From a virus: DNA of 42,398 nucleotides. Positions 8,177-40,763 of this stretch are shown here, piece by piece. Below the pieces are notes generated by a model, which did not search any database, was not told the DNA's origin, and saw nothing but the letters and a program-made list of their open reading frames with translations. A program made the position numbers and the translations under genes. The stretch lies in IMG/VR virus record IMGVR_UViG_3300045988_081729; one strand, written 5' to 3'. Position 1 is the stretch's first letter, and every line of letters starts with the position of its first letter.

Positions 8177-9741
8177 AGAAACACCTCCCTGTATTTCATT
8201 GTGTATGTTGGCTGTGTTGCCCAGTCCGATGCAATGCATTGGATCTGATTCATTCCAGGCTGCAGGCAAAAGTTCTCCCAATCGTTGCCCAACGCACCAA
8301 GATCCTGTCTCGGAAGTCCCTGTAACATGACCTCTCCATTGCTACAGTCAGCTGTCAAAACCTGATTTACCGAAAATTTATTCGGAATATCACGCCATTT
8401 TTCTACATTGTCAATTCTCACGAAGATGCCGCGGAAATAATTTCTGGTGACAAGCTGATTTCCTGTATTTCGACTTCCCCACTGTCCCAAATACAATTTC
8501 ACTGTTGCCACTTTCACATCTTTTAATTCTGGAACTGTAAATTCCGGATAACTGCCCTTCCAGAAAAAACGTATTTTCTCTCCATGTTTCATCATGTCGC
8601 TTGCGCCATACGTTTGGCTGTATGGGTTTGCATCTTTTCGATGGCAAGGTTCAAAAGTATATGTTTTGACGATACGCGGGTTGTTTCCACCTACCCACAT
8701 ATTCATGTGCGCTGTGTTTCCGATCGTATCGGTTTTGTATATCTCCTGGCAGCAGATCATTTTTCCGTTCGCATCGCAGAAAGCAATCGCCTGGCAGCCC
8801 GTCTGCCCCATAAGACCAGTTTCAAACCAGCTGTTCATGTAACAATAGAGGTGCGTCGCTCCCTTTGCTCCATTGGAATCTACCACATCAATAGATTTCA
8901 TAGCTCCATTCCAGCCGTTTGTGTTTGGACTTACATATCCACTGCTGGCCAGATACAGACCTTTGATGCTGTCTACGCTCATGACACCCAGCTTTCCAGC
9001 CGTCTTGCTGTTACTGTATAAGAAGTTGCTCCCTGTATCATCTTTCCACGCCGCATCCTGTGACCAGACATATTGGTCAGCATAGCTTGTTATCAGTTCG
9101 CTTTTTTTGTATGTTTCTCCGTTCAACTCATCCGGATCACCGAACTGAAGAATTTTCTTGGAGTCATTTACAAAACCTACTACTCCATTTTCACTGTGCA
9201 TTACTGCCTGAAGCTTTGGAAAGGCCCGATAAGTGCCGTTGTACGACACAATGAACGTTTTTCCGTCATCCGCAGTCGGATTCACCGTAAATTCTTCCAC
9301 CGAATACTTGAATGGATCCGCGCAGTAAAATTCCAGCTCCGATGTAATCGAGTTCTTTCCTGCAGGCACCTCACCGGCTCCCTGCTTTGTTCCAATATAA
9401 TATTTGTCCGGCTCATCCGCAAAAATAAGAGTCGCCTGTTCTTCATCCAGAAGAGCATTCAGCTTGTTATACGCACTACGAAAAGCCGAATTATCTTCAG
9501 CAATCAGTTGATATCCAACCACAATGGTTCTGGGTTGATAGCGTTTGCGCCGGTATTTCGTACCATCGGATACGCCAGTTTCCAGATCTGTAATCTCCGT
9601 CCCTAAAATTTCCCGGCCAGACACATATAGTGTCCGGTAGCCGGGAATCACATTTTCCAAATAGTTTCCATTAAACATGAGAGCCTCCGAAGGCAGGTTC
9701 TGCCCTGGGTATCGCTCTGTTGTATCTACAAAGTTATACAT
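8173..9741 (-). CDS. Distal tail protein (Dit, Sipho_tail family), enlarged/evolved form (522 aa)
   Basis: N-terminus ...FNGNYLENVIPGYRTLYVSGRE...RTIVVGYQL...LIFADEPDKYYIG is typical of Sipho_tail. Located between TMP and Tal. About twice the usual Dit length. Confidence 0.8.
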   Translation of the reverse strand: MYNFVDTTERYPGQNLPSEALMFNGNYLENVIPGYRTLYVSGREILGTEITDLETGVSDGTKYRRKRYQPRTIVVGYQLIAEDNSAFRSAYNKLNALLDEEQATLIFADEPDKYYIGTKQGAGEVPAGKNSITSELEFYCADPFKYSVEEFTVNPTADDGKTFIVSYNGTYRAFPKLQAVMHSENGVVGFVNDSKKILQFGDPDELNGETYKKSELITSYADQYVWSQDAAWKDDTGSNFLYSNSKTAGKLGVMSVDSIKGLYLASSGYVSPNTNGWNGAMKSIDVVDSNGAKGATHLYCYMNSWFETGLMGQTGCQAIAFCDANGKMICCQEIYKTDTIGNTAHMNMWVGGNNPRIVKTYTFEPCHRKDANPYSQTYGASDMMKHGEKIRFFWKGSYPEFTVPELKDVKVATVKLYLGQWGSRNTGNQLVTRNYFRGIFVRIDNVEKWRDIPNKFSVNQVLTADCSNGEVMLQGLPRQDLGALGNDWENFCLQPGMNQIQCIASDWATQPTYTMKYREVFL

Positions 9742-12700
9742 TCATTCTCCTGCCTTTCTTTCGGTTCTCCCTAGTCTCCTGTTTCTCAATTTCTTCACGT
9801 GTATACGTTGCAGTCGCCTTTCCGATTTCTCTTCCGTCCAGATTAACCGGTACATAGATGGTATATTTTCCATTACTGCTATACTGATAGCTGTCATTCA
9901 GATCTTCAGATCCAGTCCGAAGGCTCATTCCGATTTCCGGTGCAGGTGTAAGCTCCGGAATCTGTATCAGCTCCATGGCTGCCTGCTTTGCTTCCTGAAC
10001 ATGATCCATAATGCCGTTGATCCAACCAATACCGAAATAGTTGCCCAGCTTGTCCGTCACTCGCGCGGGACTGTGAATCTGCGCTTTTGCCCGGATCGCC
10101 GCTTCTGCAGCCGCCGCAAGCTGTGCCGCCACTGCTCTTACATGGCCGACCTGGCTTGCCATACCGTTAGCGAGACCCATGCCGATGTAAGCACCGCTGT
10201 TATAGGCCCCACCTGCCGATGATCGCATGGTAATTACGATTGAATTTGACATTGTTTCTGCTGTAGAAACCGCCCTTGACATTCCAGCTGAAACGCCATT
10301 ATTAAAATTATTTCCAACCGCATTTCCAGAAGTCTTCGCTTTACTTTCTCCTTGGGAAAACTGCTTAATCAATGCACTGATCGCAGATTTCGCCTTGTTT
10401 CCCAATGCATCCAGCCCAGAATTCACAACATTCACGCTGGAGCGCATACCTGTAAGCGATTTTTCAGCGCTTTTCGCATTTCCAGCGATTGACTTCATAC
10501 TGGAATTTACTGATTTCAGAGCAACTACCATAAGACCGGTTCCTGCGGCTCCGGCCACCATTGCCGCTGCAAATACGCCAACTGTTACAGCTGCCGCGCC
10601 AGAAGATCCTGCCAAAATCACAAAAACTGCACTGGCCGCAGTACCAGATCCAAGTAATGCCGTCAATCCAGCCGCACTGGCCTTTGCGCCAGCCGCTACA
10701 AGTGGAAATGCTGCTCCCATAATCGTCAAACCTGCACCTGCCATCACAAGCGAAGCTCCAAGCACCGCTGCTCCGGCAGCCAATGCAATTACTCCTGCGG
10801 CTGCAGCCAGTGCAGTTACGCCGACCAACGCAAGACCAACTCCGAGCACGGTTGCGCCAACTCCTCCAACAGCAGCTCCGGTGCCAAAAACAATCATGCT
10901 TGTGCCAAGCTGAGCAATAGCTACCGCTCCCTGGATTCCATATTGTACAATTGAAGGAAGAACAGCGGACACAACCGCCAATGCCGCGCTGGCAATCAAC
11001 GCACCTGTTGCTACCAAAACAATAGCGGCTCCAAATGCAATAAAGCCAACTGCTCCCGCTGTTAGTGCTGGTCCAAGAGCAGCCGCTCCAACTGCCAACA
11101 AAGCGATTGCCGCAACCATGCCAACCATACATCCAATAGCCAGCGGACCGGCATTTGCAAGATTAATAGCCGCCAAGGATAACAAACTGATTCCGGCTGC
11201 TGCAATTAATACCGCAGCGCCAAACGCAACAAATCCAACCGCTCCGGCCGAAAGCGTTGGCGCTACACTCTTGGCCACCAGCATCAAGCCGCCAAGTGCA
11301 ACCACCATTCCTACCATTACGCCGATAGCCAGCGGACCGGCACTCGCCAACTGAATCGAAGAATATGCCAAAAGTGCCAAACCTGCGCTAATCATTAGCA
11401 CAGCCGCTCCCAACGCCAGAAGCGCCGGTGCCATCGCTGTTAATTTCTTTGAGCCGCCGGACATAGATGAAAACATTTTCGTCATACCAACTGCGAGCCC
11501 TACTACCACGCCAATCAAACCGGCAAAAACAGCTATTGCCCCCGGACCAGCATTGGCTACTGCAATTGCCGACTGTGCAAGCAAGTAGAATCCTGCGCTG
11601 ATCGCCAGCACTCCAACGCCCATCATCATAAAAGCCTTGGCAGACGCTACCATTTTCTTCGCACTACCGCCGCTGGATTTTCCAACTGCCTCCTGGCCTT
11701 TTGAAACACCAAATAGCCCAGGTGCGATTTTCCCGAGTCCAGCCTTTGCCAGCCCTCCAACAGCTCCTGTAAATGCGCCAACAAACGGTGCTACAGCCTT
11801 AACGATTTTAAAGCCTTTATATGCAATCAAGAGTTTCGGAAGTGCCACCGCTACTTTTGCAATCGCGTCTGAATGTTTTTCCAAAAATCCCGAAACTGCT
11901 ACAATTCCATCTTTGACCTCTCCCAAAGTGGTAGAGAAATTTTCAATACTTTCTGTGCTACCAAAAGAACCTGAAAGCTTCTTAATATCTCCTATGATCG
12001 CCCCAGCCGCATCGCCCAGCGCCGTTCCCGCTTCCAATGCGTCCGTTTTGAAAATATCCCAATATGGTTTTGCTTTCTCAACCATTGATTCTATTTTATC
12101 GACAGCCTTTTCGATCCCTTTTCCGCTGGCAAGCTTTTCATCAATTTTTCCAACCGTCTCAGTTGCGATGCCAACCAAACCTCTCATTTTTCCGCCAACC
12201 TGGTTGAATGCAGTAATTCCAAGTCCTTCCATAGCAGACTGCAGTTTCACGACATCGTGCCGAAAATTATCCATTTTGATCTCTGCCATTTCTTTGGCTG
12301 CACCGTCACTGTTATAAATGGCATTGGTTAACTTGTCAAAATCCTCTGGTGCCGCACTCACGATTGAAAGCAGACCTGACATACCCTCTTTTCCAGCTAA
12401 CGTAGCAGCGTATTTGGCCTTTAACGCTCCCTCTGCTCCATAAGCCTTTTCCGTTAAATCTGCTAATGCTTCATTATACTTCTTTTCTGTCAGCTCTCCA
12501 TTGGCATACTTTTCGTCAAGTTTTGCAAGGTTCTCTTGGAACTGATCCATTGGCATTTTGCATTGTCCAAATGCACCGCGCAGATCGGTTACAATGTCCA
12601 TCAGAGACTTCATCGAGCCATCACCATTCTGCAACGATATGCCCAAATAATCCATTGCGTCACTGATATCATCTGTTGGCTTTGCAAGATTCGTCAGAAT

Positions 12701-13447
12701 AGTTCGAAGGCTACTTCCGGCCATGCTGCTTTTCAATCCTGATGAAGCCATGAGACCGAGAGCGATGGCTGTATCTTCTACACTATAGCCTAACGATCCA
12801 GCTACCGGAGCCGCATATTTAAATGATTCACCCAACATGGCAACATTTGTATTGGAATTGGCCGAAGCCGCTGCAAGAACGTCAGCAAAATGTGAAGCGT
12901 TAGAAACTTCTTTCGTAAAACCATCTTTAATAATTTTGGTTGTGCCATCTGCTGATAAGCCGAACGCTGTCATCGCATCTGTTACAATGTCAGAAACGCC
13001 TGCCAAATCTTCTCCCGACGCTGCGGCTAGATCCATTACACCTTCGATTCCATTTAACATATCCTCAGTTTTCCAGCCGGCCATTGCCATATACTCCATC
13101 GCAGAAGCTGTCTCGCTTGCGGTGTACTGCGTGAATTTTCCAAGCTGTTTTGCCTTTTCAGACAGTCTATCAAAGTCGGATCCTGTAGCTCCGGAAATAG
13201 CTGCTACAGACGACATAGCATTCTCAAAATTCGCGCCAGCGTTTATTGCACCAGCAGTCAAGCTTTTCAGTCCGCTTCTGATTGCCGAGACTGCCTTGGA
13301 TCCAATCGCCGCCATAGCACCAAATCCAATTCCACTTGTAAGCGTATTTTTCAGATTATCAGCATAACTGCTACATGATTTCATCATTGACGAGAAGTTT
13401 TTATCTTCCGCGCACAAAACCGCTTTTACGCTATAAGATTCTGCCAT
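9734..13447 (-). CDS. Tail tape measure protein (1237 aa)
   Basis: N-terminal TP901-type TMP core (...NFENAMSSVAAISGATGSDFDRLSEKAKQLG...MEYMAMAGWK...). Position after the G/GT chaperones. Very long Ala/Gly/Val hydrophobic repeat region. Confidence 0.9.
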   Translation of the reverse strand: MAESYSVKAVLCAEDKNFSSMMKSCSSYADNLKNTLTSGIGFGAMAAIGSKAVSAIRSGLKSLTAGAINAGANFENAMSSVAAISGATGSDFDRLSEKAKQLGKFTQYTASETASAMEYMAMAGWKTEDMLNGIEGVMDLAAASGEDLAGVSDIVTDAMTAFGLSADGTTKIIKDGFTKEVSNASHFADVLAAASANSNTNVAMLGESFKYAAPVAGSLGYSVEDTAIALGLMASSGLKSSMAGSSLRTILTNLAKPTDDISDAMDYLGISLQNGDGSMKSLMDIVTDLRGAFGQCKMPMDQFQENLAKLDEKYANGELTEKKYNEALADLTEKAYGAEGALKAKYAATLAGKEGMSGLLSIVSAAPEDFDKLTNAIYNSDGAAKEMAEIKMDNFRHDVVKLQSAMEGLGITAFNQVGGKMRGLVGIATETVGKIDEKLASGKGIEKAVDKIESMVEKAKPYWDIFKTDALEAGTALGDAAGAIIGDIKKLSGSFGSTESIENFSTTLGEVKDGIVAVSGFLEKHSDAIAKVAVALPKLLIAYKGFKIVKAVAPFVGAFTGAVGGLAKAGLGKIAPGLFGVSKGQEAVGKSSGGSAKKMVASAKAFMMMGVGVLAISAGFYLLAQSAIAVANAGPGAIAVFAGLIGVVVGLAVGMTKMFSSMSGGSKKLTAMAPALLALGAAVLMISAGLALLAYSSIQLASAGPLAIGVMVGMVVALGGLMLVAKSVAPTLSAGAVGFVAFGAAVLIAAAGISLLSLAAINLANAGPLAIGCMVGMVAAIALLAVGAAALGPALTAGAVGFIAFGAAIVLVATGALIASAALAVVSAVLPSIVQYGIQGAVAIAQLGTSMIVFGTGAAVGGVGATVLGVGLALVGVTALAAAAGVIALAAGAAVLGASLVMAGAGLTIMGAAFPLVAAGAKASAAGLTALLGSGTAASAVFVILAGSSGAAAVTVGVFAAAMVAGAAGTGLMVVALKSVNSSMKSIAGNAKSAEKSLTGMRSSVNVVNSGLDALGNKAKSAISALIKQFSQGESKAKTSGNAVGNNFNNGVSAGMSRAVSTAETMSNSIVITMRSSAGGAYNSGAYIGMGLANGMASQVGHVRAVAAQLAAAAEAAIRAKAQIHSPARVTDKLGNYFGIGWINGIMDHVQEAKQAAMELIQIPELTPAPEIGMSLRTGSEDLNDSYQYSSNGKYTIYVPVNLDGREIGKATATYTREEIEKQETRENRKKGRRMNV

Positions 13448-17557: not shown

Positions 17558-18193
17558 CTACTGAAATAATGCAATATTTTCCGCAATCAGCCGCTGCCGT
17601 TCAATTGGGTTGCTGACTGCAAGAATCTGTTCTTTTGTCACAGCACCTTTTCCGCCGGATCCGCCCTTTGGGGCATTTCCTTTCAGGGCATCTTTTACGG
17701 CAGCCTGTACTGCATCCTTGTACATCTTTGTGAAAGCTTCGACTGCCGTCTTGGTATCCTCAGCGCTTTCCGATACCAGATGTGCCAGAAGTTCATCCGG
17801 GATGTTGATTTCTTCATCTGCCAGCATCTTTCTGGCCGTCTTTGACATTTCCGAGAGCGAATTCTGCCGTTTCAGATCTGCCAGTTCCTTTTCCAACTTC
17901 CGGTTTTTATACTCCGCTTTCTCTTCCTTTGTCATCTTCGCCAGCTTTTCCGCCTCTGAAAGCTTATCATCAGTCAGTGCCTGCCACTTTTCCTGCGCTT
18001 TGGTCACTGCTGTATTTACCGCTTTCTGCACTCTGCGGTCGAACTCCGCGCGATTCTCTGCCTGCCCCAGAAAATCATCAAACGACATCTCATTGCCGCT
18101 ATCTCCAGAACCTGCTCCAGCTCCGTCCTCGTTTCCGTCTCCGGCTCCGCTGCCGTCTCCTTCGCCGTCTGCAAATACCTGCAGGTTGATCAT
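17558..18193 (-). CDS. Capsid scaffolding protein
   Basis: Start moved to ATG 18193 (GGAGAA RBS), giving MINLQVFADGEGDGSGAG... Highly charged, helical, Ala/Lys/Glu-rich. Upstream of the capsid gene. Confidence 0.8.
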   Translation of the reverse strand: MINLQVFADGEGDGSGAGDGNEDGAGAGSGDSGNEMSFDDFLGQAENRAEFDRRVQKAVNTAVTKAQEKWQALTDDKLSEAEKLAKMTKEEKAEYKNRKLEKELADLKRQNSLSEMSKTARKMLADEEINIPDELLAHLVSESAEDTKTAVEAFTKMYKDAVQAAVKDALKGNAPKGGSGGKGAVTKEQILAVSNPIERQRLIAENIALFQ

Positions 18194-18324
18194 CGGGATT
18201 CTCCAATGATAATGGTTGTTTTTGCGCTTCATTATTTTTCTGTCCTTTCTGCCCCGTCCCGTTCTGTAATAGCCCCGTGCCGTTGCTCCGGAATCATAGT
18301 TTAACGACATTTCGGTCACATCGG

Positions 18325-18612
18325 TTACACGATCCGGACATGCTCCGGAAATTCATCGACCATCAGACAGATGCCGACAAAAAAGGAATCCACCAGAGTT
18401 CTTGCTCTCTCTGATAGATTCCCATACTGTATATCAACCCATCCGGGCGATACTTCGTATTCTATTTCATCCCCTGTCAGATCCTCAATCGAGTGGATCA
18501 GCGTCCGCACAAGGCTGGAAACGCCCGCGCAGACAATATCCTGCCCATGTGGTGCGTACATTGCATGACCGGACACAGTCAATCGGTCTTTTCTTACCGT
18601 TACATCAATCAA
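18325..18612 (-). CDS. prp: Prp-family cysteine protease (ribosomal-processing protease homologue, DUF464)
   Basis: 95 aa: MIDVTVRKD...SGHAMYAPHGQDIVCAGVSSL..., the His/Cys dyad context of Prp. TTG start. Confidence 0.75.
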   Translation of the reverse strand: MIDVTVRKDRLTVSGHAMYAPHGQDIVCAGVSSLVRTLIHSIEDLTGDEIEYEVSPGWVDIQYGNLSERARTLVDSFFVGICLMVDEFPEHVRIV

Positions 18613-18677
18613 CAGTCATCACATCCTTTCATTCCGGCTGTTCCCTGCCGGTGGGAGATGTATGGATCACCGCTTTT

Positions 18678-18989
18678 CTACTCTGCTGTGTAATCTTCAA
18701 TGACCGGAATACCGTACTCAATAGCACATGTATTTTCGATCTTGCACCCTCTGGCATCCTGCCAGCCTTTCGCAAAGTAGGCAATGTCAGCACCAGCCAG
18801 AAGTTCCAGGGATTTTCCAAGGAACCAGAGTGGCTTTGCATCCACCGGAGCTTCCTGGAAGAAAGAATCAATAACCTCTACTTGCTCTCCAATCACGTCT
18901 TCTGCACTCTTGATTGCTTTCTTACGTTCTGCAAGGATATCTTCATCAGACTTTCCTTTCATTGGCTGTGAAATAAACAATTTCTTCAT
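18678..18989 (-). CDS. DUF4406-like protein (nucleoside 2-deoxyribosyltransferase-like fold)
   Basis: Start at ATG 18989 (AGGAGGATTAATC). MKKLFISQPMKGKSDEDI...LLAGADIAYFAKGWQDARGCKIENTCAIEYGIPVI matches my memory of the DUF4406 pattern (YISGPM...GWE.S.G...E). Confidence 0.5.
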   Translation of the reverse strand: MKKLFISQPMKGKSDEDILAERKKAIKSAEDVIGEQVEVIDSFFQEAPVDAKPLWFLGKSLELLAGADIAYFAKGWQDARGCKIENTCAIEYGIPVIEDYTAE

Positions 18990-19000
18990 GATTAATCCTC

Positions 19001-19516
19001 CTAATCTGCAAACACCCAATCATCTGCAAGCATATCTGCCTGACTTGCGAGCCATCCCATCTGTACTCCTGATGTTCCGACAAATGCGATAGCCATGTTT
19101 CCGATAGCATCATGCTCGCAATTCACGATCTCCCCATCCGGCGTCTTATAAGAAATCCCAGTGGCGAGCTGAATGTACTGCTTTTTGCCGTTCCATCCTT
19201 TACGAGCCACCTTAAGTCCTCTTTTCAGATAACGGATAGCATCTCCAAAGCAAAATGTTGACTGACCGCCAAGAACACCACAATTCTTTTCATCAGCAAT
19301 CATCCAATCATCCCTCTGTGTGTGCATGAAAGTATATTCCACCCTCTGTGTTTCACGGATATCAAGAACTTCTCCCTGTCCTTTGTCGGAATCTTTTGAT
19401 CTGCAATGAATCATAATTGTCTGCTTATCAATGTCCCAACACCAGTAACCATTCCAACCAGGAAGTTTCACCTTTTCTCCATGTTTCATTGCTTCAAATG
19501 CTTCTTTGAAATTCAT
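19001..19516 (-). CDS. Tandem DUF2829 (Tad2-like) domain protein
   Basis: Two copies of the DUF2829 signature. Copy 1: MNFKEAFEAMKHGEKVKLPGWNGYW...DDWMIAD. Copy 2: FGDAIRYLKRGLKVARKGWNGKKQYIQL...MLADDWVFAD. AGGAGG RBS. Confidence 0.7.
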   Translation of the reverse strand: MNFKEAFEAMKHGEKVKLPGWNGYWCWDIDKQTIMIHCRSKDSDKGQGEVLDIRETQRVEYTFMHTQRDDWMIADEKNCGVLGGQSTFCFGDAIRYLKRGLKVARKGWNGKKQYIQLATGISYKTPDGEIVNCEHDAIGNMAIAFVGTSGVQMGWLASQADMLADDWVFAD

Positions 19517-19529
19517 GATTTACTACCTC

Positions 19530-19799
19530 CTATTCTTCTGTATGACATGTATTTGTTATTTTACCATATACATCCTCATAAAGTTCCTGCTTGTCACCGT
19601 TGTAGGTGTATTCGGCATAGATACCATCTCCGCTGATAGTGGTTGATGCAAGGCACTTATAATTCTGAAGTGTTTTGCATGACCATACCACGAATACATT
19701 TCCAAGGTCGATCTGAACTTCCGGTCTGTTCTTGTGGTACCATTCAACGAGTTTCTTCTGTGCTACACTCTCGAAATGTGCCATTCCTGTGATAATCAT
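19530..19799 (-). CDS. Hypothetical phage protein (89 aa)
   Basis: ATG with AAGGTGA-type RBS. ...FVVWSCKTLQNYKCLASTTISGDGIYAEYTYNGDKQELY... resembles a conserved small phage family whose function is unknown to me. Confidence 0.6.
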   Translation of the reverse strand: MIITGMAHFESVAQKKLVEWYHKNRPEVQIDLGNVFVVWSCKTLQNYKCLASTTISGDGIYAEYTYNGDKQELYEDVYGKITNTCHTEE

Positions 19800-19819
19800 A
19801 TTTCACCTTGTCCTTTCTT

Positions 19820-19862
19820 AAAAATGTGTATAAAAATACCACCGGCCTCTCGACTGGTGGTA
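19820..19862 (-). terminator. Rho-independent terminator closing the Zn-ribbon/YjcQ cassette
   Basis: Minus strand TACCACC-(12 nt)-GGTGGTA followed by TTTTTATACACATTTTT, starting 2 nt after the stop at 19864. Confidence 0.6.
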
Positions 19863-19863
19863 A

Positions 19864-20226
19864 CTATGAAATAATTGCGCCAAGTAATGCAGACAAGATC
19901 ACGTTGAATGTTTCGGCACAATATTCTTTTGCTTTCTGCATACGGCTGTTTTCTTCCAGGAACTGTACGCCCTCAAACGTAATCTCAAATGGTCTGTCTG
20001 TTTGGGGCATTGGCGCGTCTTTTGTTTTGTCAATGACTGCAAACCCTGTAATATATCCCTTCCTTACAAGTGTTACAATGATCTTGCACCAATAGCTTTG
20101 CGGAATATCAAATAATTTTGAATTCCAGGCAAACTGTTCGAGTTCCGGTTCTACGCCGAGTTTCATGCATTCGTACAGATATCTCAGTATTTTATACATG
20201 ATTACTTCCATGTCATTCTTTGCCAT
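19864..20226 (-). CDS. YjcQ-family winged-helix protein, paralogue 2 (120 aa, hydrophobic C-terminal tail)
   Basis: MAKNDMEVIMYKILRYLYECMKLG...IPQSYWCKIIVTLVRKGYITGFAV...FLEENSRMQKAK. Clear paralogue of the upstream gene. AAGGAG RBS. Confidence 0.7.
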   Translation of the reverse strand: MAKNDMEVIMYKILRYLYECMKLGVEPELEQFAWNSKLFDIPQSYWCKIIVTLVRKGYITGFAVIDKTKDAPMPQTDRPFEITFEGVQFLEENSRMQKAKEYCAETFNVILSALLGAIIS

Positions 20227-20251
20227 TATCGTTTTTGCTCCTTAAACAGTT

Positions 20252-20584
20252 TTATACGAACGGGACCATCTCTTTTACGTCCTTCAACGTCCTTTTTGCC
20301 TTTTCAAGCAACGAATTTTCGAACAGATAGGAAATACCTTTCGGCGTGATAATGGTATCGGGCAGATCGCCTAAAAGAACGCCATCTTTCGTATGATTGA
20401 CGGCAATACCTTTTACATACCCTTCTGTAATCAAGCTTAAAATGATATACTGCCAATAATTTTCGGGAATATTATAGGCTGATGCCGTAAGGTAACACGC
20501 TTCTGGTTTTTCACCCTTTTTCAAACATTCATACAGATATTTCAGTACCTGATATACGATCACAAAGTAATCATTCTGAGCCAT
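20252..20584 (-). CDS. YjcQ-family winged-helix protein, paralogue 1 (110 aa)
   Basis: The track start is GTG. ATG 20584 has an AAGGAGA RBS at 8 nt. MAQNDYFVIVYQVLKYLYECLKKG...IPENYWQYIILSLITEGYVKGIAV...LFENSLLEKAK. Confidence 0.7.
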   Translation of the reverse strand: MAQNDYFVIVYQVLKYLYECLKKGEKPEACYLTASAYNIPENYWQYIILSLITEGYVKGIAVNHTKDGVLLGDLPDTIITPKGISYLFENSLLEKAKRTLKDVKEMVPFV

Positions 20585-20603
20585 TTGCACCGTCTCCTTA
20601 TCA

Positions 20604-20774
20604 TCAGTTGATAATTAACTGATTCTTGCAAGAATCACAGTAAAAAGTATTGGTTTTTTCACGGTCGCCAACAGGAATCATGATTCCTGTTTTACATTTT
20701 TTGCACAAAACTTTTTCGCCTTTCCTCAAGAGCTTTACTCTCTCATGAGGCGGAATATTCAGAGTATTCGTCAT
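20604..20774 (-). CDS. Small zinc-ribbon protein (56 aa), missing from the ORF track
   Basis: Hand translation: MTNTLNIPPHERVKLLRKGEKVLCKKCKTGIMIPVGDREKTNTFYCDSCKNQLIIN (CxxC...CxxC). GGGAGTG RBS. The stop lies 17 nt before the next start. Confidence 0.6.
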   Translation of the reverse strand: MTNTLNIPPHERVKLLRKGEKVLCKKCKTGIMIPVGDREKTNTFYCDSCKNQLIIN

Positions 20775-20780
20775 AAACAA

Positions 20781-22187
20781 TCACTCCCATTTCAGATTCG
20801 GATATTTATCATTTATATGATTAATTATATCCTGGAGCACTTTCTCTGTCAATTCAATGTTTTGATGCCTGTACTCGTTCACATAGCATTGCAGTTCTTG
20901 ACTTTTGGTATTTGGCTTGTTGATTTTGGCATGCGTGGCCTCGTGAATCACCGTAATAGCCGTTTCACGAACCGTTTTGGTATTATCAGCATAAATGTTG
21001 ATTTCTCCATCTTCGAAAAGTCCGTCCAGTCCTTCATCAACATCAACTCCGTACCATACCTTTATTTGAATATCATTTTCCTGAAGATATTCCAACATTT
21101 CCGTTCCGATGCTGGACTTTTTCATTTCTTTCATGATATTTCGAGGTTTGATAACGTCTCGCCCCTTTGATCTGCCATCCAATGTTTGGAATATTCCTTC
21201 GTTGTCTTTATATCTTGCCTTTCTGTTTTTCGATGCTTCCCGTTCTTCTGTGGTACCACCCTGTTCCAGAAAGTCCAACCATTTCTCATATTCTGCACTG
21301 TCTTCATAGGCTGCCGTGGAGCAGTGACACCGCGGATGCATCGGCGGCGCGTTCGTCCCCGGCATCATATCCTGCACTTTGAAATGCTTACCATCCAACG
21401 CCTGGCACCGCTCGCAGACATCTGCATTCCCGCAGGCAACGTATGTATATTCTTCGAATCCATTTCGAATATAGGACTGCTTCTGCGCTTCTGTCTGGAC
21501 TCTGGCAAGCTCCGTGACCATGAGCCGCTCTGCATCCTCCCGGCTTGCACCGAAGCGTTTCTGCAGGTGCACCGCAAGCTCCCGCGGGTTCTTGCCCTGG
21601 ATTAGCCCTGTTTTCAGCAGCTTGTCCAGCTCTGCTTTCAGCATATCCTGATACATCCAGATTCGATCGGAATAAGTGGCGTTATGGAATGACGCATCGA
21701 CAATTGCCCGCGCCATTTTTCCATTTTCCTGCACGGAATTGCCAAGAATACCCGCCTGCCTGCGAAATTCTTCTATTGTCTGCTGTGTCAGCGTCTTGTC
21801 AAAATATTTCTGCAGTTCATCGAAACCGGATACCATTTCCAGCCCGATATTGGCTTTCAGCAGTTCCAGACGGTTGATCTTCATGGTTGCATTGTACAGC
21901 CGCATCTCTTCATTCGCCTGGTCGGAAAAATCTTTTTCTTTGACGTATTTCGCCGCTTTCCTGCCATACTCTTCGATATCGAGCTTGGAAACCCTTCTCT
22001 TTGCTTCTGCCAGCGAAATCTTCTCAGCATTGGCGTATTTTGCGTAAAATCCATCGATTTCCTTCTGAATCTGATCCGCCATATACGCATAGGTCTTCCG
22101 GATCTCTTCTGCATAGGTCTGCTCAGACATCTTATTCTTCTTGGCATGTTCCGTCTCACGTTTCTGCCAGTATTCCTTACTCGTCAT
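20781..22187 (-). CDS. Head morphogenesis protein (SPP1 gp7 / Mu F family) with a C-terminal HExxH extension
   Basis: MuF core ...LMVTELARVQTEAQKQSY...CERCQALDGKHF...PPMHPRCHCS... Start taken at ATG 22187 (the track start is TTG 22205). The last ~140 aa are extra and contain VIHEATHA (20931-20945). Confidence 0.85.
   Translation of the reverse strand: MTSKEYWQKRETEHAKKNKMSEQTYAEEIRKTYAYMADQIQKEIDGFYAKYANAEKISLAEAKRRVSKLDIEEYGRKAAKYVKEKDFSDQANEEMRLYNATMKINRLELLKANIGLEMVSGFDELQKYFDKTLTQQTIEEFRRQAGILGNSVQENGKMARAIVDASFHNATYSDRIWMYQDMLKAELDKLLKTGLIQGKNPRELAVHLQKRFGASREDAERLMVTELARVQTEAQKQSYIRNGFEEYTYVACGNADVCERCQALDGKHFKVQDMMPGTNAPPMHPRCHCSTAAYEDSAEYEKWLDFLEQGGTTEEREASKNRKARYKDNEGIFQTLDGRSKGRDVIKPRNIMKEMKKSSIGTEMLEYLQENDIQIKVWYGVDVDEGLDGLFEDGEINIYADNTKTVRETAITVIHEATHAKINKPNTKSQELQCYVNEYRHQNIELTEKVLQDIINHINDKYPNLKWE
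20824..20852 (-). promoter_or_regulatory. Perfect sigma-A consensus promoter embedded in the 3' end of the MuF gene
   Basis: Minus strand TTGACA (20852-20847), 17 nt, TATAAT (20829-24), about 45 nt upstream of the Zn-ribbon ATG. Confidence 0.65.
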
Positions 22188-23511
22188 CCTGTCCACCGCC
22201 GCCAAACATCTGCTTCATCACTGGATCCGCTCTCACCTTGTTCTGATCGGTATCAATTTTCTTGATTTCATCCTGTACATTGTCCACAATAGACAGCACC
22301 CCGAGCTGTGTTTCCTGGCTGACCACACCTTCCAGATTCTTCGCGATCTCTGCCTCTTCCTGCAGGTTTGCCGGGAAATTTGGTGTAAAATGTGGATGGA
22401 TCTTCACCCAGTCATCTTTTTTCATTCCTGAGACCGGATTTGAGAAAATCAGACGATACCTCCGGTTCATTCCGCTGGTAAATTTCCGCTCTTTCGTTTT
22501 TTCCAAGTTACTCATTGCCTGCAGCTTATATTTCATGGCGATGCCGGAACTGGTGCCAAAATTCTCATCCGAGATATTGGCCACCATGCTGATATGGAAA
22601 ATGAGCTTTTCCAGACGATCGATCAGATGCTCCTGCGTGGTATCACCATCCGGTTTCTGAAGAAATTCGACAATCAACCGTTCGGTGTCCCCGTCGAAAT
22701 TAATGATTCTGTCATCCCGGATATGCGCCACATCGTCTTCTTCCAGCTTGGAACCAAGAACCTTGAGATAGGCATCCGCGAAATAGTCAACATCATTGGC
22801 TTTCTCGCTGATCGCCTTGTTGTATGCATTAATCATCGTAAGGACCGGCTCGAAGATTCCCATACGCTCCTTGTTTTCTACGTACTCCGATGCCGGAACG
22901 CCGTCGAAGCCGTGTATCTTCTCGTCTGCATCCCAGAGTAATTTTCCTTTGATTGTAAACCAGCGGACCTTCGTCTCGTCCGATACGCTTCCATGAAGGA
23001 TCTGATTCGAATCGTAATACAGCCGCACGAAATATCGTTCCCTTTCCAGCACGGAATCGTCGTAGATCATGAATGCATCCAGCGGGCTCAGATAGGTGAT
23101 ACCGATATTTCCGTTCTCATCTACGTAATACATTTCATAGCCTTTGCCGAAGATACTGCAGATCTTGGACAGTTCGGCATTGTTATCGTCCTGATCATTA
23201 TACTGATCCAGAAAATCAACATATTTCTCAACCGCTTCGTTTCCATCGTCTACCTGCAGTTTGATCGGATGCCCGATGAAGAAGCCGTTCATCGTATCCA
23301 CGATGTATTTCGCAAAGTTGACCATGATCCGGTTGTCCGGCTTCCACTTGGGCTTTAACGGCTCATGCAGGATCGGGTAATCCGTCTCGTAGGCCTCCTG
23401 CAGCATGCTGTATCTAAATGCGCACTCTCCGGAATGCCGCATGATAAATTCGTTCAATTTGGCATCTGTCAGCGTCTCTTCCGACGGTAGCCTATACAAA
23501 TTCGTTCGCAC
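22177..23511 (-). CDS. Portal protein (SPP1 gp6-like)
   Basis: 444 aa immediately after terL. GTG start with an AAGGAGGG RBS 8 nt upstream. Sequence pattern fits the SPP1-type portal family. Confidence 0.85.
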   Translation of the reverse strand: MRTNLYRLPSEETLTDAKLNEFIMRHSGECAFRYSMLQEAYETDYPILHEPLKPKWKPDNRIMVNFAKYIVDTMNGFFIGHPIKLQVDDGNEAVEKYVDFLDQYNDQDDNNAELSKICSIFGKGYEMYYVDENGNIGITYLSPLDAFMIYDDSVLERERYFVRLYYDSNQILHGSVSDETKVRWFTIKGKLLWDADEKIHGFDGVPASEYVENKERMGIFEPVLTMINAYNKAISEKANDVDYFADAYLKVLGSKLEEDDVAHIRDDRIINFDGDTERLIVEFLQKPDGDTTQEHLIDRLEKLIFHISMVANISDENFGTSSGIAMKYKLQAMSNLEKTKERKFTSGMNRRYRLIFSNPVSGMKKDDWVKIHPHFTPNFPANLQEEAEIAKNLEGVVSQETQLGVLSIVDNVQDEIKKIDTDQNKVRADPVMKQMFGGGGQDDE

Positions 23512-25373: not shown

Positions 25374-25441
25374 TTGGAACGGCAGGATTCGAACCTGCGC
25401 CTCGTGCCGGCGTCTCTGCGCTCTCCTTGAGCTACGTTCCA
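25374..25441 (-). ncRNA. tRNA-like element (intact acceptor stem, T-arm and D-arm-like hairpin; no canonical anticodon arm found by hand)
   Basis: Minus strand TGGAACG-TA-GCTCAAGGAGAGC-...-GCAGGTTCGAATCCTGC-CGTTCCA-A. 7-bp acceptor, perfect T-arm/T-loop, only 68 nt. The 21 nt where the anticodon arm should be (GCAGAGACGCCGGCACGAGGC) do not form a 5-bp stem. Confidence 0.5.
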
Positions 25442-25482: not shown

Positions 25483-25510
25483 ACTATAAAATTCAAGCAG
25501 GCCTTGTCAA
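25483..25510 (-). promoter_or_regulatory. Near-consensus sigma-A promoter upstream of the tRNA-like element
   Basis: Minus strand TTGACA (25510-25505), 16 nt, TATAGT (25488-25483). Predicted start about 35 nt before the tRNA-like 5' end. Confidence 0.55.
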
Positions 25511-25751: not shown

Positions 25752-26174
25752 TTACTCTTTCTCGAAAAATCTTTGAAATTCCATTTTCACACTGCCCTCC
25801 GTAGCTTTCCGCCCCAGTTTACTTGCCACCTGGCTCCAGCTCATCTCCTCGAAGACTCTGTACTTGATGATCCGCTGCATCCTCTGCGGAATGTGGTTCA
25901 TCCACTGCTCCACTTCTACCTTCAACCGCTGGGCGTTTTCCCGGCGCTCTTCCAGGATTTTCTCCTCGTACCGCAGGCGCGAGTCCTCCTCATACGTAAA
26001 CGCCGTCCCAGCGATCTTAAAGTGCTGCGGATTGTACGGAAATTCCGGATTGCTCCCGGACACGTTCGTCTGCACGATGGTCTGCCGCTTCTTTTTCAGC
26101 CGTCTAATGTCCTTTTCCGTCTCTTTGATCAGCTCGCATGCGTCTATGTACTGCTCCAGAACCTTTTTCTCCAT
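25752..26174 (-). CDS. Late-gene transcriptional activator candidate (RinA/ArpU-like, sigma-70 region-4-type HTH)
   Basis: Start at ATG 26174 (GAGGAGGTG RBS). C-terminus ...RMQRIIKYRVFEEMSWSQVASKLGRKATEGSVKMEFQRF is a region-4-like HTH. Size (140 aa) and position just upstream of terS match RinA/ArpU-type regulators. Confidence 0.6.
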   Translation of the reverse strand: MEKKVLEQYIDACELIKETEKDIRRLKKKRQTIVQTNVSGSNPEFPYNPQHFKIAGTAFTYEEDSRLRYEEKILEERRENAQRLKVEVEQWMNHIPQRMQRIIKYRVFEEMSWSQVASKLGRKATEGSVKMEFQRFFEKE

Positions 26175-26187
26175 TGGTATCACCTCC

Positions 26188-27663
26188 TCACGCAAATCTC
26201 AACTGCTCCTGGCTGTCATTGATGTTAAGGTTCGGCACCCGCTCCCCTACTTTTAAGTACGAGCAGTTGGCTTCTACTAACTTTTCCGCCATAATCGGCA
26301 CCACACTGTTCCCGATCCGCGCCACCTGCTTTGCAATCGGGTACGGTTTCCAGTTGTAATCCCGATCAATGATATAATCTTTCGGGAATCCTTGCATCAG
26401 CTTCAGTTCTTCCGGTTTCAGCATTCGCAGGAAGATATCCTTCAGAATGTATTTTTCTCCCTGAATATCCAGCACCACATTAACCAAACCAAAACGATCC
26501 TTCGTGGTGATCGTATCCAGTGGCCTGTCAATGCCTTGGCAGCTTCCGCCGGATCCGTAATATTTAATCAGGAATGCGGATATCAGCCCGAAGTGCCCCG
26601 GCGATGTTGTAATCGTATGCAATGGCTCATCGCAACCCTGTCCGATACCAGTCTTGTAATATTTGGTAATAAACGCTGTCACCAGCCCGTACCGGTTACT
26701 GGTATCAATGGTCTTGATCGGCTCCGTTAGAAACTGGCCCCGGGAATCTCCGGCTTTCGTCTCGCCGTGATACTGGATGAGAAAAGCAGTCACCAGACGA
26801 TTGTGATCTACGGTGGTAATTGTGCTGCAAGGAGAATGCAGGTCACTTCCACAACCTTTATAGTTTCCACCATATGCTTTATCCAGATACGACAAAAACA
26901 GCTTTTCTCCATCTTTTACGATATATGGATTCGGATTTTCCACGATATATTTCCGGATTCCATTCGCGATACGCTTCATAGTCGCGTCCGCCAGAGGCTT
27001 TGGCCTATCAAATATGGATCGTCCAAAATCTGACCAGTCTATGTAGTCGCCACAGGCTTTCCACCGTGGCTCTCGATCCTTGAAGTGAGTCGGTGCCGGC
27101 CATACAATCTCACGTCCGTCTCTCCGGAAGATTGCGTACCAGCGTTTCCGTGTCGTGGGTGCTCCGTAGTCTGCTGCTATCAGTTCTCTGCACTCAAACA
27201 TATATCCAAGAGATTTCATTGCCATAATAAATTTTCGATAGTCCTCTCCACGACGTTCCTTAATCGGATGACCATTACTGTCAAGCGGCCCCCACTGTTG
27301 TATTTCCTCTACGTTTTCCATCAGGATCACGTCCGGCAGAATTGCTTTAGCGTGTTTGTAAACAGCCCACGGAAGAATTCTCAATCCTTTCTCCCGTGGT
27401 TTACCGCCTTTTGCCTTGCTATGGCTTGTACAGTCCGGCGACGCCCACATCAGAGCCACGTGCCGGCCTTTTACATATTTCTTCAAGTCAACCTTAAAAA
27501 TATCTTCTGTTAGATGCAGCGTGTTCGGATGATTCGTTTTGTGCATCAGGATGGCATCCGGATCGTGATTAATCGCAATATCTACCGGTCTCCCCAGTGC
27601 CATCTCGATGCCGACGGAGGCGCCGCCCCCGCCAGCAAAGCAGTCAATAATCAGATCCTTCAT
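26188..27663 (-). CDS. DNA (cytosine-5) methyltransferase, orphan
   Basis: Motif I DCFAGGGG, motif IV SPDC, motif VI ENV, motif VIII TTRKRWY, QGFP and motif X IGNSVVP. No restriction endonuclease gene nearby. Confidence 0.85.
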   Translation of the reverse strand: MKDLIIDCFAGGGGASVGIEMALGRPVDIAINHDPDAILMHKTNHPNTLHLTEDIFKVDLKKYVKGRHVALMWASPDCTSHSKAKGGKPREKGLRILPWAVYKHAKAILPDVILMENVEEIQQWGPLDSNGHPIKERRGEDYRKFIMAMKSLGYMFECRELIAADYGAPTTRKRWYAIFRRDGREIVWPAPTHFKDREPRWKACGDYIDWSDFGRSIFDRPKPLADATMKRIANGIRKYIVENPNPYIVKDGEKLFLSYLDKAYGGNYKGCGSDLHSPCSTITTVDHNRLVTAFLIQYHGETKAGDSRGQFLTEPIKTIDTSNRYGLVTAFITKYYKTGIGQGCDEPLHTITTSPGHFGLISAFLIKYYGSGGSCQGIDRPLDTITTKDRFGLVNVVLDIQGEKYILKDIFLRMLKPEELKLMQGFPKDYIIDRDYNWKPYPIAKQVARIGNSVVPIMAEKLVEANCSYLKVGERVPNLNINDSQEQLRFA

Positions 27664-36885: not shown

Positions 36886-37617
36886 TTATACCGCTTCTTC
36901 TTTTTTAAGGTACTTATTCAGAAAATACTGCTGGCCTTTCCCAGTTACCTTTGTAGTTTTGGTCATCCGCACGCTGCCGTCCGGATTGGAAATCACGGTT
37001 TCTTTGATCTGAAATAGACCGTCCGCTACATATCGCTGCGTCGGCATGTTCCGACTGGATCCAGTCTTCATGAGGTACCCTTCGTTGCGGAGCTGTTCGA
37101 ACAATCTTTTCTGTCCGGTATCTACGCCATTCTGACGCAGGAGCTTCGCGAGGTCGCCGATCAGGATGGAGCTGGTGCTTGCGCTCACCGCGTCCGCGAA
37201 GATTTCCTTCGGCTTCATGCGCTCGTTCTCCTCAATCAGTTTCTTGTTATCTTCTTTCAGAGTGTCGATGGTTCTGTCTGCGAGCTTCAGCGCCCTTGCC
37301 ATCACCTGCTCCGGAGTGTTCCAGGCCTTCTCCAAGTCGACGAAGTACTGACGATACAGTTTACCTTTCTCGGAGCGCTGAATCATGCAGATCTGTTTGG
37401 CCATATCTACGGAAATGTTATGATCTATAGTTCTTCCACCGTTTTCTAAATTTTTAGAAAACGTGAAATAGTCCATATTTTCAACAAATCCATATGCTGA
37501 CATGTTTTTAAACCAATCAGCATACTTGCTTTTAATTTCCAGTGCTTCATGCAGGTCTCTCGCCGATACTGTCGGCTGTTCTCCTTCGTAATTAATAGGA
37601 ATCAACATCTTTTCCAT
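36886..37617 (-). CDS. Antirepressor (Rha/AntA-like N-terminal domain + KilAC C-terminal domain)
   Basis: Start ATG 37617 (GAAGGTGAG RBS). VSARDLHEALEIKSKYADWFKNM...FVENMDYF (Rha-like) and ...FADAVSASTSSILIGDLAKLLRQNGVDTGQKRLFEQLRNEGYL (KilAC). Confidence 0.8.
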   Translation of the reverse strand: MEKMLIPINYEGEQPTVSARDLHEALEIKSKYADWFKNMSAYGFVENMDYFTFSKNLENGGRTIDHNISVDMAKQICMIQRSEKGKLYRQYFVDLEKAWNTPEQVMARALKLADRTIDTLKEDNKKLIEENERMKPKEIFADAVSASTSSILIGDLAKLLRQNGVDTGQKRLFEQLRNEGYLMKTGSSRNMPTQRYVADGLFQIKETVISNPDGSVRMTKTTKVTGKGQQYFLNKYLKKEEAV

Positions 37618-37765
37618 GTAACTCACCTTCTTTCTTTTTTCTGTCATCCTGTTTCTGGCTTACCATGGCTTCTCCCATCCCCAAGAGATAGCCCTTGTCA
37701 AAATCAGACATTTTAGGAATTGCCGTTGCGATGGTTTCCAGAATCTGTTTTTCTCTTTCTGACAT
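37592..37765 (-). CDS. First early gene: small protein (57 aa), missing from the ORF track
   Basis: AAAGGAAGTGA RBS. Hand translation: MSEREKQILETIATAIPKMSDFDKGYLLGMGEAMVSQKQDDRKKKEGELHGKDVDSY. Not an obvious HTH. Confidence 0.5.
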   Translation of the reverse strand: MSEREKQILETIATAIPKMSDFDKGYLLGMGEAMVSQKQDDRKKKEGELHGKDVDSY

Positions 37766-39808: not shown

Positions 39809-39894
39809 TTAATCCGTAATTTTTTGAATTGTTAAACGTATGTACATGGGATATTGTATCCCGCACAAAATACATTTCAAAAAGGAGAATGTCT

Positions 39895-40575
39895 ATGAAA
39901 AAGAAAATCGTAACCCTCATTCTGGCAACTGCCCTCACCGCATCCGCTCTGACTGCCTGCGGATCGTCAACCGCTTCCAGCTCCTCGAGTTCCTCAAGCT
40001 CTTCGTCTACTGCTTCCAGCAGCATCAGCGAGACCGAAACTCCAACGCCTACGGAAGAGGCAACACCGACTCCAACCGAAGAAGCCACAAGTACACAGTC
40101 CGAATCCGAAGACTCCAGCGTTCCGTGGGACTATACATCGGCTCTTAATTCAGCTGAAAGCTACAGTGAAATAATGCACATGTCAAAAGCCGGAATCTAC
40201 GATCAGTTGACCTCCGAGTATGGAGACCAATTCTCTGCCGAGGCTGCCCAGTATGCAGTTGACAATATGACCGCCGACTGGAATGCAAATGCCCTTGCAA
40301 CAGCAGAAAACTACAACGAAACGATGCATATGTCGAAAGCCGGACTCTATGACCAGCTTACATCTGAAAGTGGGGAAAAATTTACCGCTGAAGAGGCGCA
40401 GTACGCTGTCGATAATATAAATGCTGATTGGAACGCAAACGCCCTCGAGACCGCAAAAGACTACCGTGATAACATGGATATGTCGCCAGAAGCGATCCGT
40501 GATCAGCTCACCTCTGAATATGGTGAACAGTTTACCGCCGAGGAAGCCGATTACGCTATACAGAATTTAAACTAA
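39895..40575 (+). CDS. ltp: Ltp-type surface lipoprotein (superinfection exclusion) with three Ltp repeats
   Basis: Start ATG 39895 (AAGGAGA RBS). Signal peptide plus lipobox MKKKIVTLILATALTASALTAC. Ser/Thr/Pro linker. Three repeats: AL.(S/T)A..Y...M.MS...(I/L).DQLTSE.G..F(S/T)AE.A.YA(V/I).N. Confidence 0.8.
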   Translation: MKKKIVTLILATALTASALTACGSSTASSSSSSSSSSSTASSSISETETPTPTEEATPTPTEEATSTQSESEDSSVPWDYTSALNSAESYSEIMHMSKAGIYDQLTSEYGDQFSAEAAQYAVDNMTADWNANALATAENYNETMHMSKAGLYDQLTSESGEKFTAEEAQYAVDNINADWNANALETAKDYRDNMDMSPEAIRDQLTSEYGEQFTAEEADYAIQNLN

Positions 40576-40674: not shown

Positions 40675-40763
40675 CACCAGAACAAGCGAAAAGTTTGTTT
40701 GGTGTTATTTTTGTACCTTTTTTTAGGCGAAACTATCAAAAAACACAAAGGAGGATGGCTATT

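Follow-up and report, generated by a model that had tools for sequence, protein, structure and literature searches.

A sigma-A-type promoter within the codons of a MuF C-terminal domain and a co-varying zinc-ribbon gene: a candidate effector/immunity pair in a temperate phage of gut Bacillota

The window analysed in this work, i.e., the whole stretch of 42,398 nucleotides (nt) held as IMG/VR virus record IMGVR_UViG_3300045988_081729, is a temperate siphophage or prophage of gut Bacillota, with its lytic genes all on the minus strand. We focus on a cassette of small genes lying inside its late head operon and on the C-terminal HExxH domain of MuF, the minor head protein in whose codons the cassette promoter is embedded. 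The head genes follow the order terS, TerL, portal and MuF, then a small-gene island, then the Prp protease, scaffold and major head protein, and the cassette is the first part of this larger accessory island, with four further genes between its terminator and the scaffold gene (Table 1). Its three genes, encoding a zinc ribbon and two proteins of the YjcQ family (YjcQ-A and YjcQ-B), are separated by gaps of 19 and 25 nt, each with a ribosome-binding site. The initial annotation had described a perfect TTGACA-17-TATAAT promoter inside the last 70 nt of MuF, a CxxC...CxxC gene of 56 codons, two tightly packed YjcQ paralogues of 110 and 120 residues, and a hairpin with a T tract right after the last stop codon, and had proposed that they form an autonomous, moron-like unit in which the three proteins may work as one system. 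Each of these elements was found in its place, and the autonomy of the unit is supported by selection on the promoter, conservation of the terminator, mosaic edges and a slot shared with phage SPP1; the notion of a single three-protein system fared differently, as discussed below.

Table 1. Features of the MuF-scaffold interval and of the rest of the window considered in the text.
Feature	Position	Strand	Remarks
Prp-type cysteine protease	18325-18612	-	PF04327, E 4e-20; closes the island before the scaffold gene
Scaffold gene	17558-18319	-	directly after the Prp gene
Second accessory module	18577-19812	-	3′ of the cassette terminator; Pfam and PHROG matches
DUF4406 / nucleoside 2-deoxyribosyltransferase-like protein	18678-18989	-	
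Tandem-domain Tad2-like anti-Thoeris protein	19001-19516	-	PF11195, Thoeris anti-defence 2
DUF6275 protein	19530-19799	-	second accessory module
Intrinsic terminator	19828-19862	-	hairpin 19837-19862 and U-tract 19828-19836 (UAUUUUUAU)
YjcQ-B, 120 residues	19864-20226	-	PF09639, E 1e-16; hydrophobic C-terminal tail (TFNVILSALLGAIIS)
YjcQ-A, 110 residues	20252-20584	-	PF09639, E 6e-21; phrog_3675; winged helix and long C-terminal helix
Zinc-ribbon protein, 56 residues	20604-20774	-	CxxC...CxxC; isoelectric point (pI) 9.5; ATG at 20774
MuF, SPP1 gp7-type minor head protein, 474 residues	20781-22205	-	PF04233, E 4e-20; phrog_115 'minor head protein', E 4e-112
Polymorphic C-terminal HExxH domain of MuF, ~145 residues	20784-21218	-	module boundary against relatives at ~21236
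Sigma-A-type promoter TTGACA-17-TATAAT	20824-20852	-	within the last 70 nt of the MuF coding sequence
Portal gene	22177-23511	-	upstream of MuF, overlaps the MuF start
tRNA-like element	25374-25441	-	Rfam RF00005, 49 bits, E 1e-7; just upstream of terS
Sigma-70 region-4-like protein, 147 residues	25752-26195	-	weak match; directly upstream of the tRNA-like element and terS
Antirepressor gene	36886-37647		
Ltp-type surface lipoprotein	39829-40575	+	three PF07553 repeats; adjoins the integrase; known superinfection-exclusion family
Integrase	40695-41993		lysogeny end

Only two perfect copies of TTGACA-17-TATAAT are present in the window, one inside MuF (20852-20824) and one at 37853-37825, the single further copy that had been noted before. 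Chance had been put at 0.005 occurrences; the rarity stands (dinucleotide shuffles give an expectation of 0.01 perfect copies per window, and two copies were reached in no shuffle), and the comparison with related phages excludes chance far more strongly. This comparison covered 13 diverged lineages carrying the HExxH domain, with domain identities of 31-66%. The promoter falls on the same codons in 12 of them, eight times as a perfect match and four times at 11/12, and the spacers are unrelated among lineages. A codon-by-codon alignment of seven of these lineages shows that the Leu codon of the promoter is TTG in all seven (usage in this genome 17%), the Thr codon is ACA in all seven (37%) and the Ile codon is ATA in six (11%), with ACA in the remaining one. 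The codon preceding the ATA of the -10 box ends in T throughout, and where Asp has been replaced by Arg or Ser the codons are still CGT and TCT. Neighbouring synonymous sites and the spacer vary in the same alignment while the promoter codons stay fixed. Given the amino acids, such a codon set has a chance of about 0.004 per lineage, and it is this improbability that leads us to conclude that the DNA motif itself is under selection. Transcription is predicted to start near 20817.

The association of such promoters with this position extends beyond the HExxH lineages. All matches at 11/12 or better in a 118-kb sense-strand set drawn from diverse loci are in the 3′ end of MuF. MuF genes with a JAB-type tail carry TTGATA-17-TATAAT, in another codon phase and 5′ of a gene for an acidic protein that we label 'FDTED'. 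A promoter of at least 11/12 was found within 600 nt upstream of YjcQ in 10 of 46 non-redundant loci, compared with 15 of 511 control windows (p 7e-6). In the window itself five sites score at least 11/12, all on the coding strand and none on the opposite strand. A promoter-like TTGACA-17-TATAAC (11/12) is located at 12339 on the minus strand, inside a 1237-residue open reading frame (ORF; 9734-13447) that is a long late gene.

The zinc-ribbon gene follows the HExxH domain with similar regularity. We searched the pairing reciprocally, from the zinc ribbon and from the HExxH domain, and combined the results into the 13 lineages; a word-index search with the zinc ribbon reached close relatives only, and distant members were recovered by an alignment-based locus search. 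A CxxC...CxxC gene of 55-69 codons lies directly 3′ of the HExxH domain in 12 of the 13 lineages, and both CxxC knuckles are conserved across the family (alignments A3 and A5). In one lineage (L189) the HExxH domain is a separate gene of 177 codons behind a short MuF, and the zinc ribbon is still next. The two partners also have complementary charge, which we count in favour of the pairing (pI 5.3 for the HExxH domain, 9.5 for the zinc ribbon). A hairpin lies 3′ of the zinc ribbon in five of the six lineages whose downstream region was checked, most with a clear T-tract, and in HExxH lineages other than the window's own the zinc ribbon was never seen to be followed by YjcQ. The AlphaFold2 model of the zinc ribbon, with a mean predicted local distance difference test (pLDDT) of 86, consists of one helix and a three-stranded ribbon; its nearest folds by Foldseek are ribosomal and RNA-polymerase zinc ribbons, without significance, and Pfam zinc-ribbon matches are sub-threshold.

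Two further observations concern the zinc-ribbon gene. Within its 171 nt lie a 22-bp perfect palindrome, AACAGGAATCATGATTCCTGTT (20670-20691), and an 18-bp perfect palindrome, TGATTCTTGCAAGAATCA (20620-20637), both improbable by chance. As functional sites they probably do not count, given that uncompensated substitutions break them in close relatives. Separately, two bacterial contigs (L188, 4400-5240; L093, 4100-5500) hold HExxH fragments, promoter, zinc ribbon and terminator beside an integrase or among chromosomal genes, with no head genes left, which suggests that the immunity unit is retained in decayed prophages.

In front of this gene, the C-terminus of MuF is polymorphic. We observed at least five types of tail behind homologous N-termini, among them JAB-like tails (HNHP...S..D), other HExxH tails and a HELxE type, and one relative (L031) bears an unrelated tail behind an N-terminus 98.7% identical to that of the window. 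The variable C-terminal extension is thus exchanged between conserved N-termini, with a breakpoint at ~21236, and the MuF gene stands immediately after the portal gene, two properties by which MuF toxin modules are recognised. A third, a co-varying small ORF immediately 3′ of the toxin domain, corresponds here to the zinc-ribbon gene, judging by its occurrence in 12 of 13 lineages with three orphan copies elsewhere. The domain present in the window has the invariant columns HEAxH...E...C...E...H in the seven-lineage alignment, and all seven members give weak matches to DUF6782, a 'putative metallopeptidase' family (best E 1.5e-5, below the Pfam cut-off); no relative with a solved structure was found. 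We therefore regard it as a putative metallopeptidase-like domain and a candidate ejected effector or toxin.

How the cassette is assembled can be read from its relatives. We surveyed 80 IMG/VR loci retrieved with YjcQ-A, complemented by ENA contigs, and this census shows the MuF-scaffold interval to be a mosaic. Its first slot holds the zinc ribbon, one or two copies of acidic 'FDTED', a 'MWYGK' protein or nothing, so that the zinc ribbon is swapped for unrelated small proteins 5′ of the same YjcQ-A; then come YjcQ-A, YjcQ-B, the terminator, DUF6275, Tad2 and DUF4406 (each optional), Prp and the scaffold gene. YjcQ-B is present in roughly half of the census loci and missing in roughly half of the near-identical relatives. 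Near-identical phages have mosaic breakpoints at the edges of the cassette: the window and L031 agree at 98.7% identity down to 21237, are unrelated over 21236-20602 (i.e., the HExxH domain, promoter and zinc ribbon) and are homologous again from the ribosome-binding site of YjcQ-A, and L027, at 99% identity up to the end of YjcQ-A, is missing precisely 19862-20251 (YjcQ-B) before homology returns at the terminator. In L252 the MuF tail and zinc ribbon are followed directly by the terminator, in L128-L144 YjcQ-B is present without YjcQ-A, and YjcQ is absent altogether from Dorea DO134P1, the closest phage isolate. The cassette is therefore a composite of three separable modules: HExxH domain/promoter/zinc ribbon (20602-21236), YjcQ-A and YjcQ-B. 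Presence or absence among close relatives and a terminator of its own after the last gene are what is expected of a moron, as is a promoter of its own, which sequence comparison indicates to be independent of the late promoter.

The same position holds other combinations of tail and small gene. JAB/MPN-like MuF tails (HNHP...S..D) are paired with small acidic proteins in four loci, 'FDTED' in L007, L031 and L080 and an acidic 46-residue ORF product (EDSYWED) in L001; together with the 'MWYGK' family they are candidates for further effector/immunity pairs.

The terminator is the fixed point of this mosaic. Its hairpin, which begins 1-2 nt past the YjcQ-B stop codon, folds at -14.9 kcal/mol (z -3.3), a stability that none of 200 shuffles reached; a simple terminator scan missed it because of an internal loop. 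Ten sequence variants keep the hairpin through wobble changes and two compensatory pairs, with an invariant T-tract. Whatever the content of the cassette, the terminator is always 3′ of its last gene, forming a conserved junction where modules are exchanged. In 46 non-redundant YjcQ loci an intrinsic terminator follows the last YjcQ gene in 27, as opposed to 5 of 115 other late genes pooled (p 1e-13), with individual controls of 0/21 for portal, 1/26 for MuF, 0/15 for scaffold, 0/12 for major head protein, 0/10 for Prp and 3/20 for TerL. Taken with the enrichment of promoters upstream, this indicates that YjcQ as a rule closes a moron-type unit in the MuF-scaffold slot.

The two YjcQ proteins share 42% identity (E 5e-25) and score 74.8 and 61.3 bits against PF09639, far above the cut-off of 23.3; profile searches and structure prediction, which had been suggested as checks, agree on this family and on the winged-helix fold. 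The AlphaFold2 model of YjcQ-A (pLDDT 86) has as its best PDB match 2HGC, the B. subtilis YjcQ (probability 1.0, E 5e-3), YjcQ models in BFVD match it at E 1e-5, and weak scores link it to DNA binders of the AspA, MarR, PadR and Sso10a types; the fold searches returned only 2HGC and such generic winged-helix regulators. With pI values of 5.2-5.8 both proteins are acidic, and no basic residue occurs in the putative recognition helix. Searching YjcQ-A against all 1.84 billion representative proteins gave 679 clusters at 50% identity; the 150 best matches listed stand alone without exception and reach about 145 residues at most, so among them domain fusions offer no functional clue. The hosts of phages with YjcQ are Lachnospiraceae, other Clostridia, Peptoniphilaceae, Aerococcus, Lactobacillus, Lactococcus (Tuc2009 orf35), Streptococcus and Faecalibacterium. 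In these phages YjcQ lies shortly downstream of MuF-superfamily genes from three families (PF04233, PF06152 and VG15), usually with one or two small ORFs in between, and several of the linked MuF-superfamily proteins bear ADP-ribosyltransferase or CdiA_C toxin tails. Genes of the YjcQ-B type also fill this slot singly in other phage lineages, and each of them encodes a hydrophobic C-terminal tail. We found no report on function in the literature on YjcQ or PF09639, no lysogen transcription data for Lj928 or Tuc2009, nothing informative in NCBIfam for the zinc ribbon, YjcQ-A or YjcQ-B, and no match of the three proteins to PADLOC defence models at E up to 0.1.

We hypothesize that the locus encodes a MuF effector/immunity pair with a promoter embedded in the effector codons, two optional YjcQ passengers and a shared terminator, an explanation that we consider probable, though well short of certain. 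We place more confidence in the association of promoter, zinc ribbon and HExxH domain than in the explanation as a whole, and little in any specific role of YjcQ. MuF carries the polymorphic HExxH metallopeptidase-like domain, which would be an effector, and would be ejected with the DNA, as published work describes for SPP1 gp7-type proteins, which enter the procapsid via the portal and leave with the genome. The basic zinc ribbon would be the cognate partner of this domain, most likely an inhibitor or immunity protein; we infer this because the two strictly co-occur and because MuF toxin and immunity genes are known to be arranged in this way. Its gene would be transcribed from the consensus sigma-A promoter in the last 70 nt of the effector, where conservation establishes the element and its activity is what the motif leads one to expect. 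The 25752-26195 product is probably a late-gene activator of the ArpU/RinA type, implying a late promoter distinct from the sigma-A consensus inside MuF, and the late control region would be a separate one, upstream of terS and beside that gene. Since the two differ, the zinc ribbon could be made while the late genes are silent; produced in the lysogen and in early infection, it would protect from incoming or newly made effector. The YjcQ genes, members of a family of small stand-alone winged-helix proteins found in this slot of many Bacillota phages, would have been inserted between zinc ribbon and terminator as separate optional modules and be co-transcribed. Speculatively, their likeliest role is that of a dimeric regulator of the unit or of a factor acting in the lysogen. 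The terminator would halt the constitutive transcript before the head genes, and late transcription would have to read through it.

Several points weigh against this explanation. Peptidase activity is deduced from the HExxH motif and the sub-threshold DUF6782 matches. Part of the promoter motif reflects protein constraint, for the domain family itself keeps the Leu-Thr and Asp-Ile-Ile/Met residues. One HExxH lineage lacks the promoter (L345-347) and another the zinc ribbon (L339), and orphan zinc ribbons stand behind other MuF tail types in three loci (L087, L250 and L251). The last of these observations made us soften the idea of an immunity protein tied exclusively to the HExxH tail; the orphans resemble the orphan immunity genes of other polymorphic toxin loci. 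Four relatives (L059, L063, L066 and L113) have the MuF stop codon changed from TGA to GGA (window-equivalent 20781-20783), creating an in-frame MuF::zinc-ribbon fusion of 529 residues, which is odd for a toxin/immunity pair yet compatible with an inhibitor. An efficient terminator within a late operon demands a read-through mechanism, and we identified none here.

An alternative that we judge unlikely is an anti-defence operon of the Acr-Aca type, in which the variable small proteins would be the effectors and the 3′ YjcQ the autorepressor of a very strong promoter. The alternation of at least three unrelated, small and mostly acidic protein families directly 5′ of the same YjcQ, the near-consensus promoter, the nearby Tad2-like anti-Thoeris gene and the likeness of the YjcQ winged helix and C-terminal helix to PadR and AspA all fit such an operon. 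It is difficult to reconcile, however, with the units of promoter, zinc ribbon and terminator that occur without YjcQ in other lineages, which make the promoter independent of YjcQ, and with the co-variation of zinc ribbon and HExxH domain, a better fit to immunity. The acidic character of YjcQ and its putative recognition helix also speak against a repressor. We compared nine architectures for k-mers and inverted repeats near the promoter that could form an operator, and only the -10 context was common to them; no inverted repeat is specific to YjcQ lineages and the palindromes of the zinc-ribbon gene are not conserved. An ATCAT-N4-ATGAT repeat after the -10 box, considered as a YjcQ operator, proved to be coding sequence that is also present in YjcQ-less lineages. 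We give a small chance, slightly below that of an Acr-Aca operon, to the extension of the effector/immunity explanation into phage-versus-phage exclusion: the zinc ribbon, perhaps with YjcQ, would neutralise effectors ejected by incoming related phages, in an arms race between capsid effectors and lysogen antidotes, with YjcQ as a widespread lysogen-expressed partner of MuF across Bacillota phages.

Less probable than these is that the cassette proteins are head-assembly or virion components and that promoter and terminator are incidental. The genes do lie between MuF and scaffold, YjcQ stands 3′ of three families of the MuF superfamily, the Tuc2009 homologue orf35 is named MCP2, and some records read 'head protein' or 'minor capsid protein 2'; such names are positional, however, and virion presence is unconfirmed according to the authors (PMC4493119). 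Variable presence among near-identical phages, the absence of YjcQ from Dorea DO134P1, the non-essential gene in the equivalent slot of TP901-1 and the selection of the promoter at the DNA level are at odds with a structural role. More improbable still is the single prophage-expressed defence or regulatory system of zinc ribbon, YjcQ-A and YjcQ-B proposed in the initial annotation. The three genes share one promoter and one terminator in a moron-like layout and would be co-transcribed, the prophage also invests in lysogen functions through its Ltp-type exclusion gene, and two paralogous winged-helix proteins could heterodimerise. Against this, relatives separate the genes in every combination, PADLOC gives no match and the zinc ribbon tracks the MuF tail rather than YjcQ. 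The neighbourhood census that had been proposed as a check showed the trio to be limited to the close lineage of the window, with no conserved co-occurrence outside it, and from the breakpoints and the separate occurrence of the parts we conclude that it is not a conserved system. We find it hardest to believe that the promoter-like sequence plays no part in transcription and results from the conservation of a Leu-Thr...Asp-Ile-Ile peptide. These residues are indeed conserved across the domain family, but protein constraint does not account for minority codons (TTG, ATA) held fixed in seven lineages while neighbouring synonymous sites and the spacer vary, for a third-position T kept when Asp becomes Arg or Ser, or for a near-consensus promoter in a different phase within unrelated MuF tails.

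The effector/immunity explanation places the locus among systems already described. In temperate phages of Firmicutes, polymorphic MuF toxins end in a toxin domain that varies from protein to protein, a metallopeptidase in 20% of cases, and the next gene is a small ORF with a putative immunity function (Jamet et al. 2017, PMC5576092). The same study proposed that prophage-encoded immunity protects lysogens (PMC5576092). Promoters are not mentioned in that study (PMC5576092), and Apk2 and Bxa are the MuF toxins studied experimentally (PMC11699363). The window agrees in the post-portal MuF N-terminus, the swapped, putatively enzymatic C-terminal domain, the small ORF immediately 3′ and the hosts, temperate phages of gut Firmicutes being common to both. 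It differs by an uncharacterised HExxH domain, of putative toxicity, with a zinc-ribbon partner, and adds a conserved promoter in the toxin codons and YjcQ genes on the same transcript.

The slot is likewise familiar from SPP1, where genes 8-10, flanked by transcription signals, form a moron segment that separates gene 7 (MuF) from gene 11 (scaffold) (PMC6316719). Slot, flanking signals and small genes interrupting a conserved head-gene order are shared, whereas the genes are unrelated, the SPP1 segment has oriR, and SPP1 is lytic, so that no question of lysogen expression arises. For YjcQ the relevant comparisons are with B. subtilis YjcQ (2HGC) and Tuc2009 ORF35, which have the PF09639 family and fold in common with the window proteins; ORF35 also occupies the same slot and has a terminator 3′ of its gene. 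The window differs in having two diverged tandem copies, one with a hydrophobic tail. The Tuc2009 protein received the name MCP2 by position, and the non-essential MCP2 gene in the TP901-1 slot is unrelated to YjcQ (PMC4493119).

Two types of unit outside the Bacillota phages invite comparison as well. In Mu-like Pseudomonas phages, the anti-CRISPR Acr-Aca locus lies between head genes and combines a strong promoter with variable small genes and a conserved 3′ helix-turn-helix gene, an arrangement shared with the cassette; the window differs in that no operator was found and in that the promoter is also present in lineages without YjcQ. To our knowledge, YjcQ belongs to no described Aca family. 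Lambdoid morons are reportedly units of promoter, gene and terminator in late operons, as Juhala and Hendrix in 2000 and Cumby and co-workers in 2012 are said to have set out. The cassette resembles them in its own promoter and terminator, its variable presence and its late-operon location; its promoter, in contrast, is not intergenic, but lies in the codons of the upstream structural gene and is tied to the C-terminal domain of that gene. What is new here is the deeply conserved promoter inside a coding sequence, while the moron slot and the kind of MuF toxin/immunity pair were already known.

The remainder of the window gives the context of this island. The module 3′ of the cassette terminator is gained or missing as one block among relatives, while the Prp gene is kept in nearly all of them; the interval between MuF and scaffold looks like a hotspot for anti-defence and accessory genes. 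At the lysogeny end, the Ltp-type lipoprotein is likely a second function expressed in the lysogen. Near the start of the late operon, the stretch 25374-25441 may be a degenerate or unusual tRNA-like element: ARAGORN found no tRNA anywhere in the window despite the Rfam match. A promoter-like TTGACA-16-TATAGT site lies at 25510.

MuF toxins are abundant in prophages of gut Firmicutes, and two types, Apk2 and Bxa, have been studied. How a lysogen expresses the immunity gene under a silent late operon has so far been unaddressed, and the embedded promoter offers a concrete and testable answer, one that from its sequence would supply the missing route for immunity expression while the late operon is off. 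The HExxH domain and its 56-residue zinc ribbon constitute a clean pair for study. The map of the MuF-scaffold island, which also houses anti-defence genes (Tad2 for one), can guide association-based searches for new small effectors, and flagging YjcQ as a moron-type gene consistently tied to MuF narrows the search for its function.

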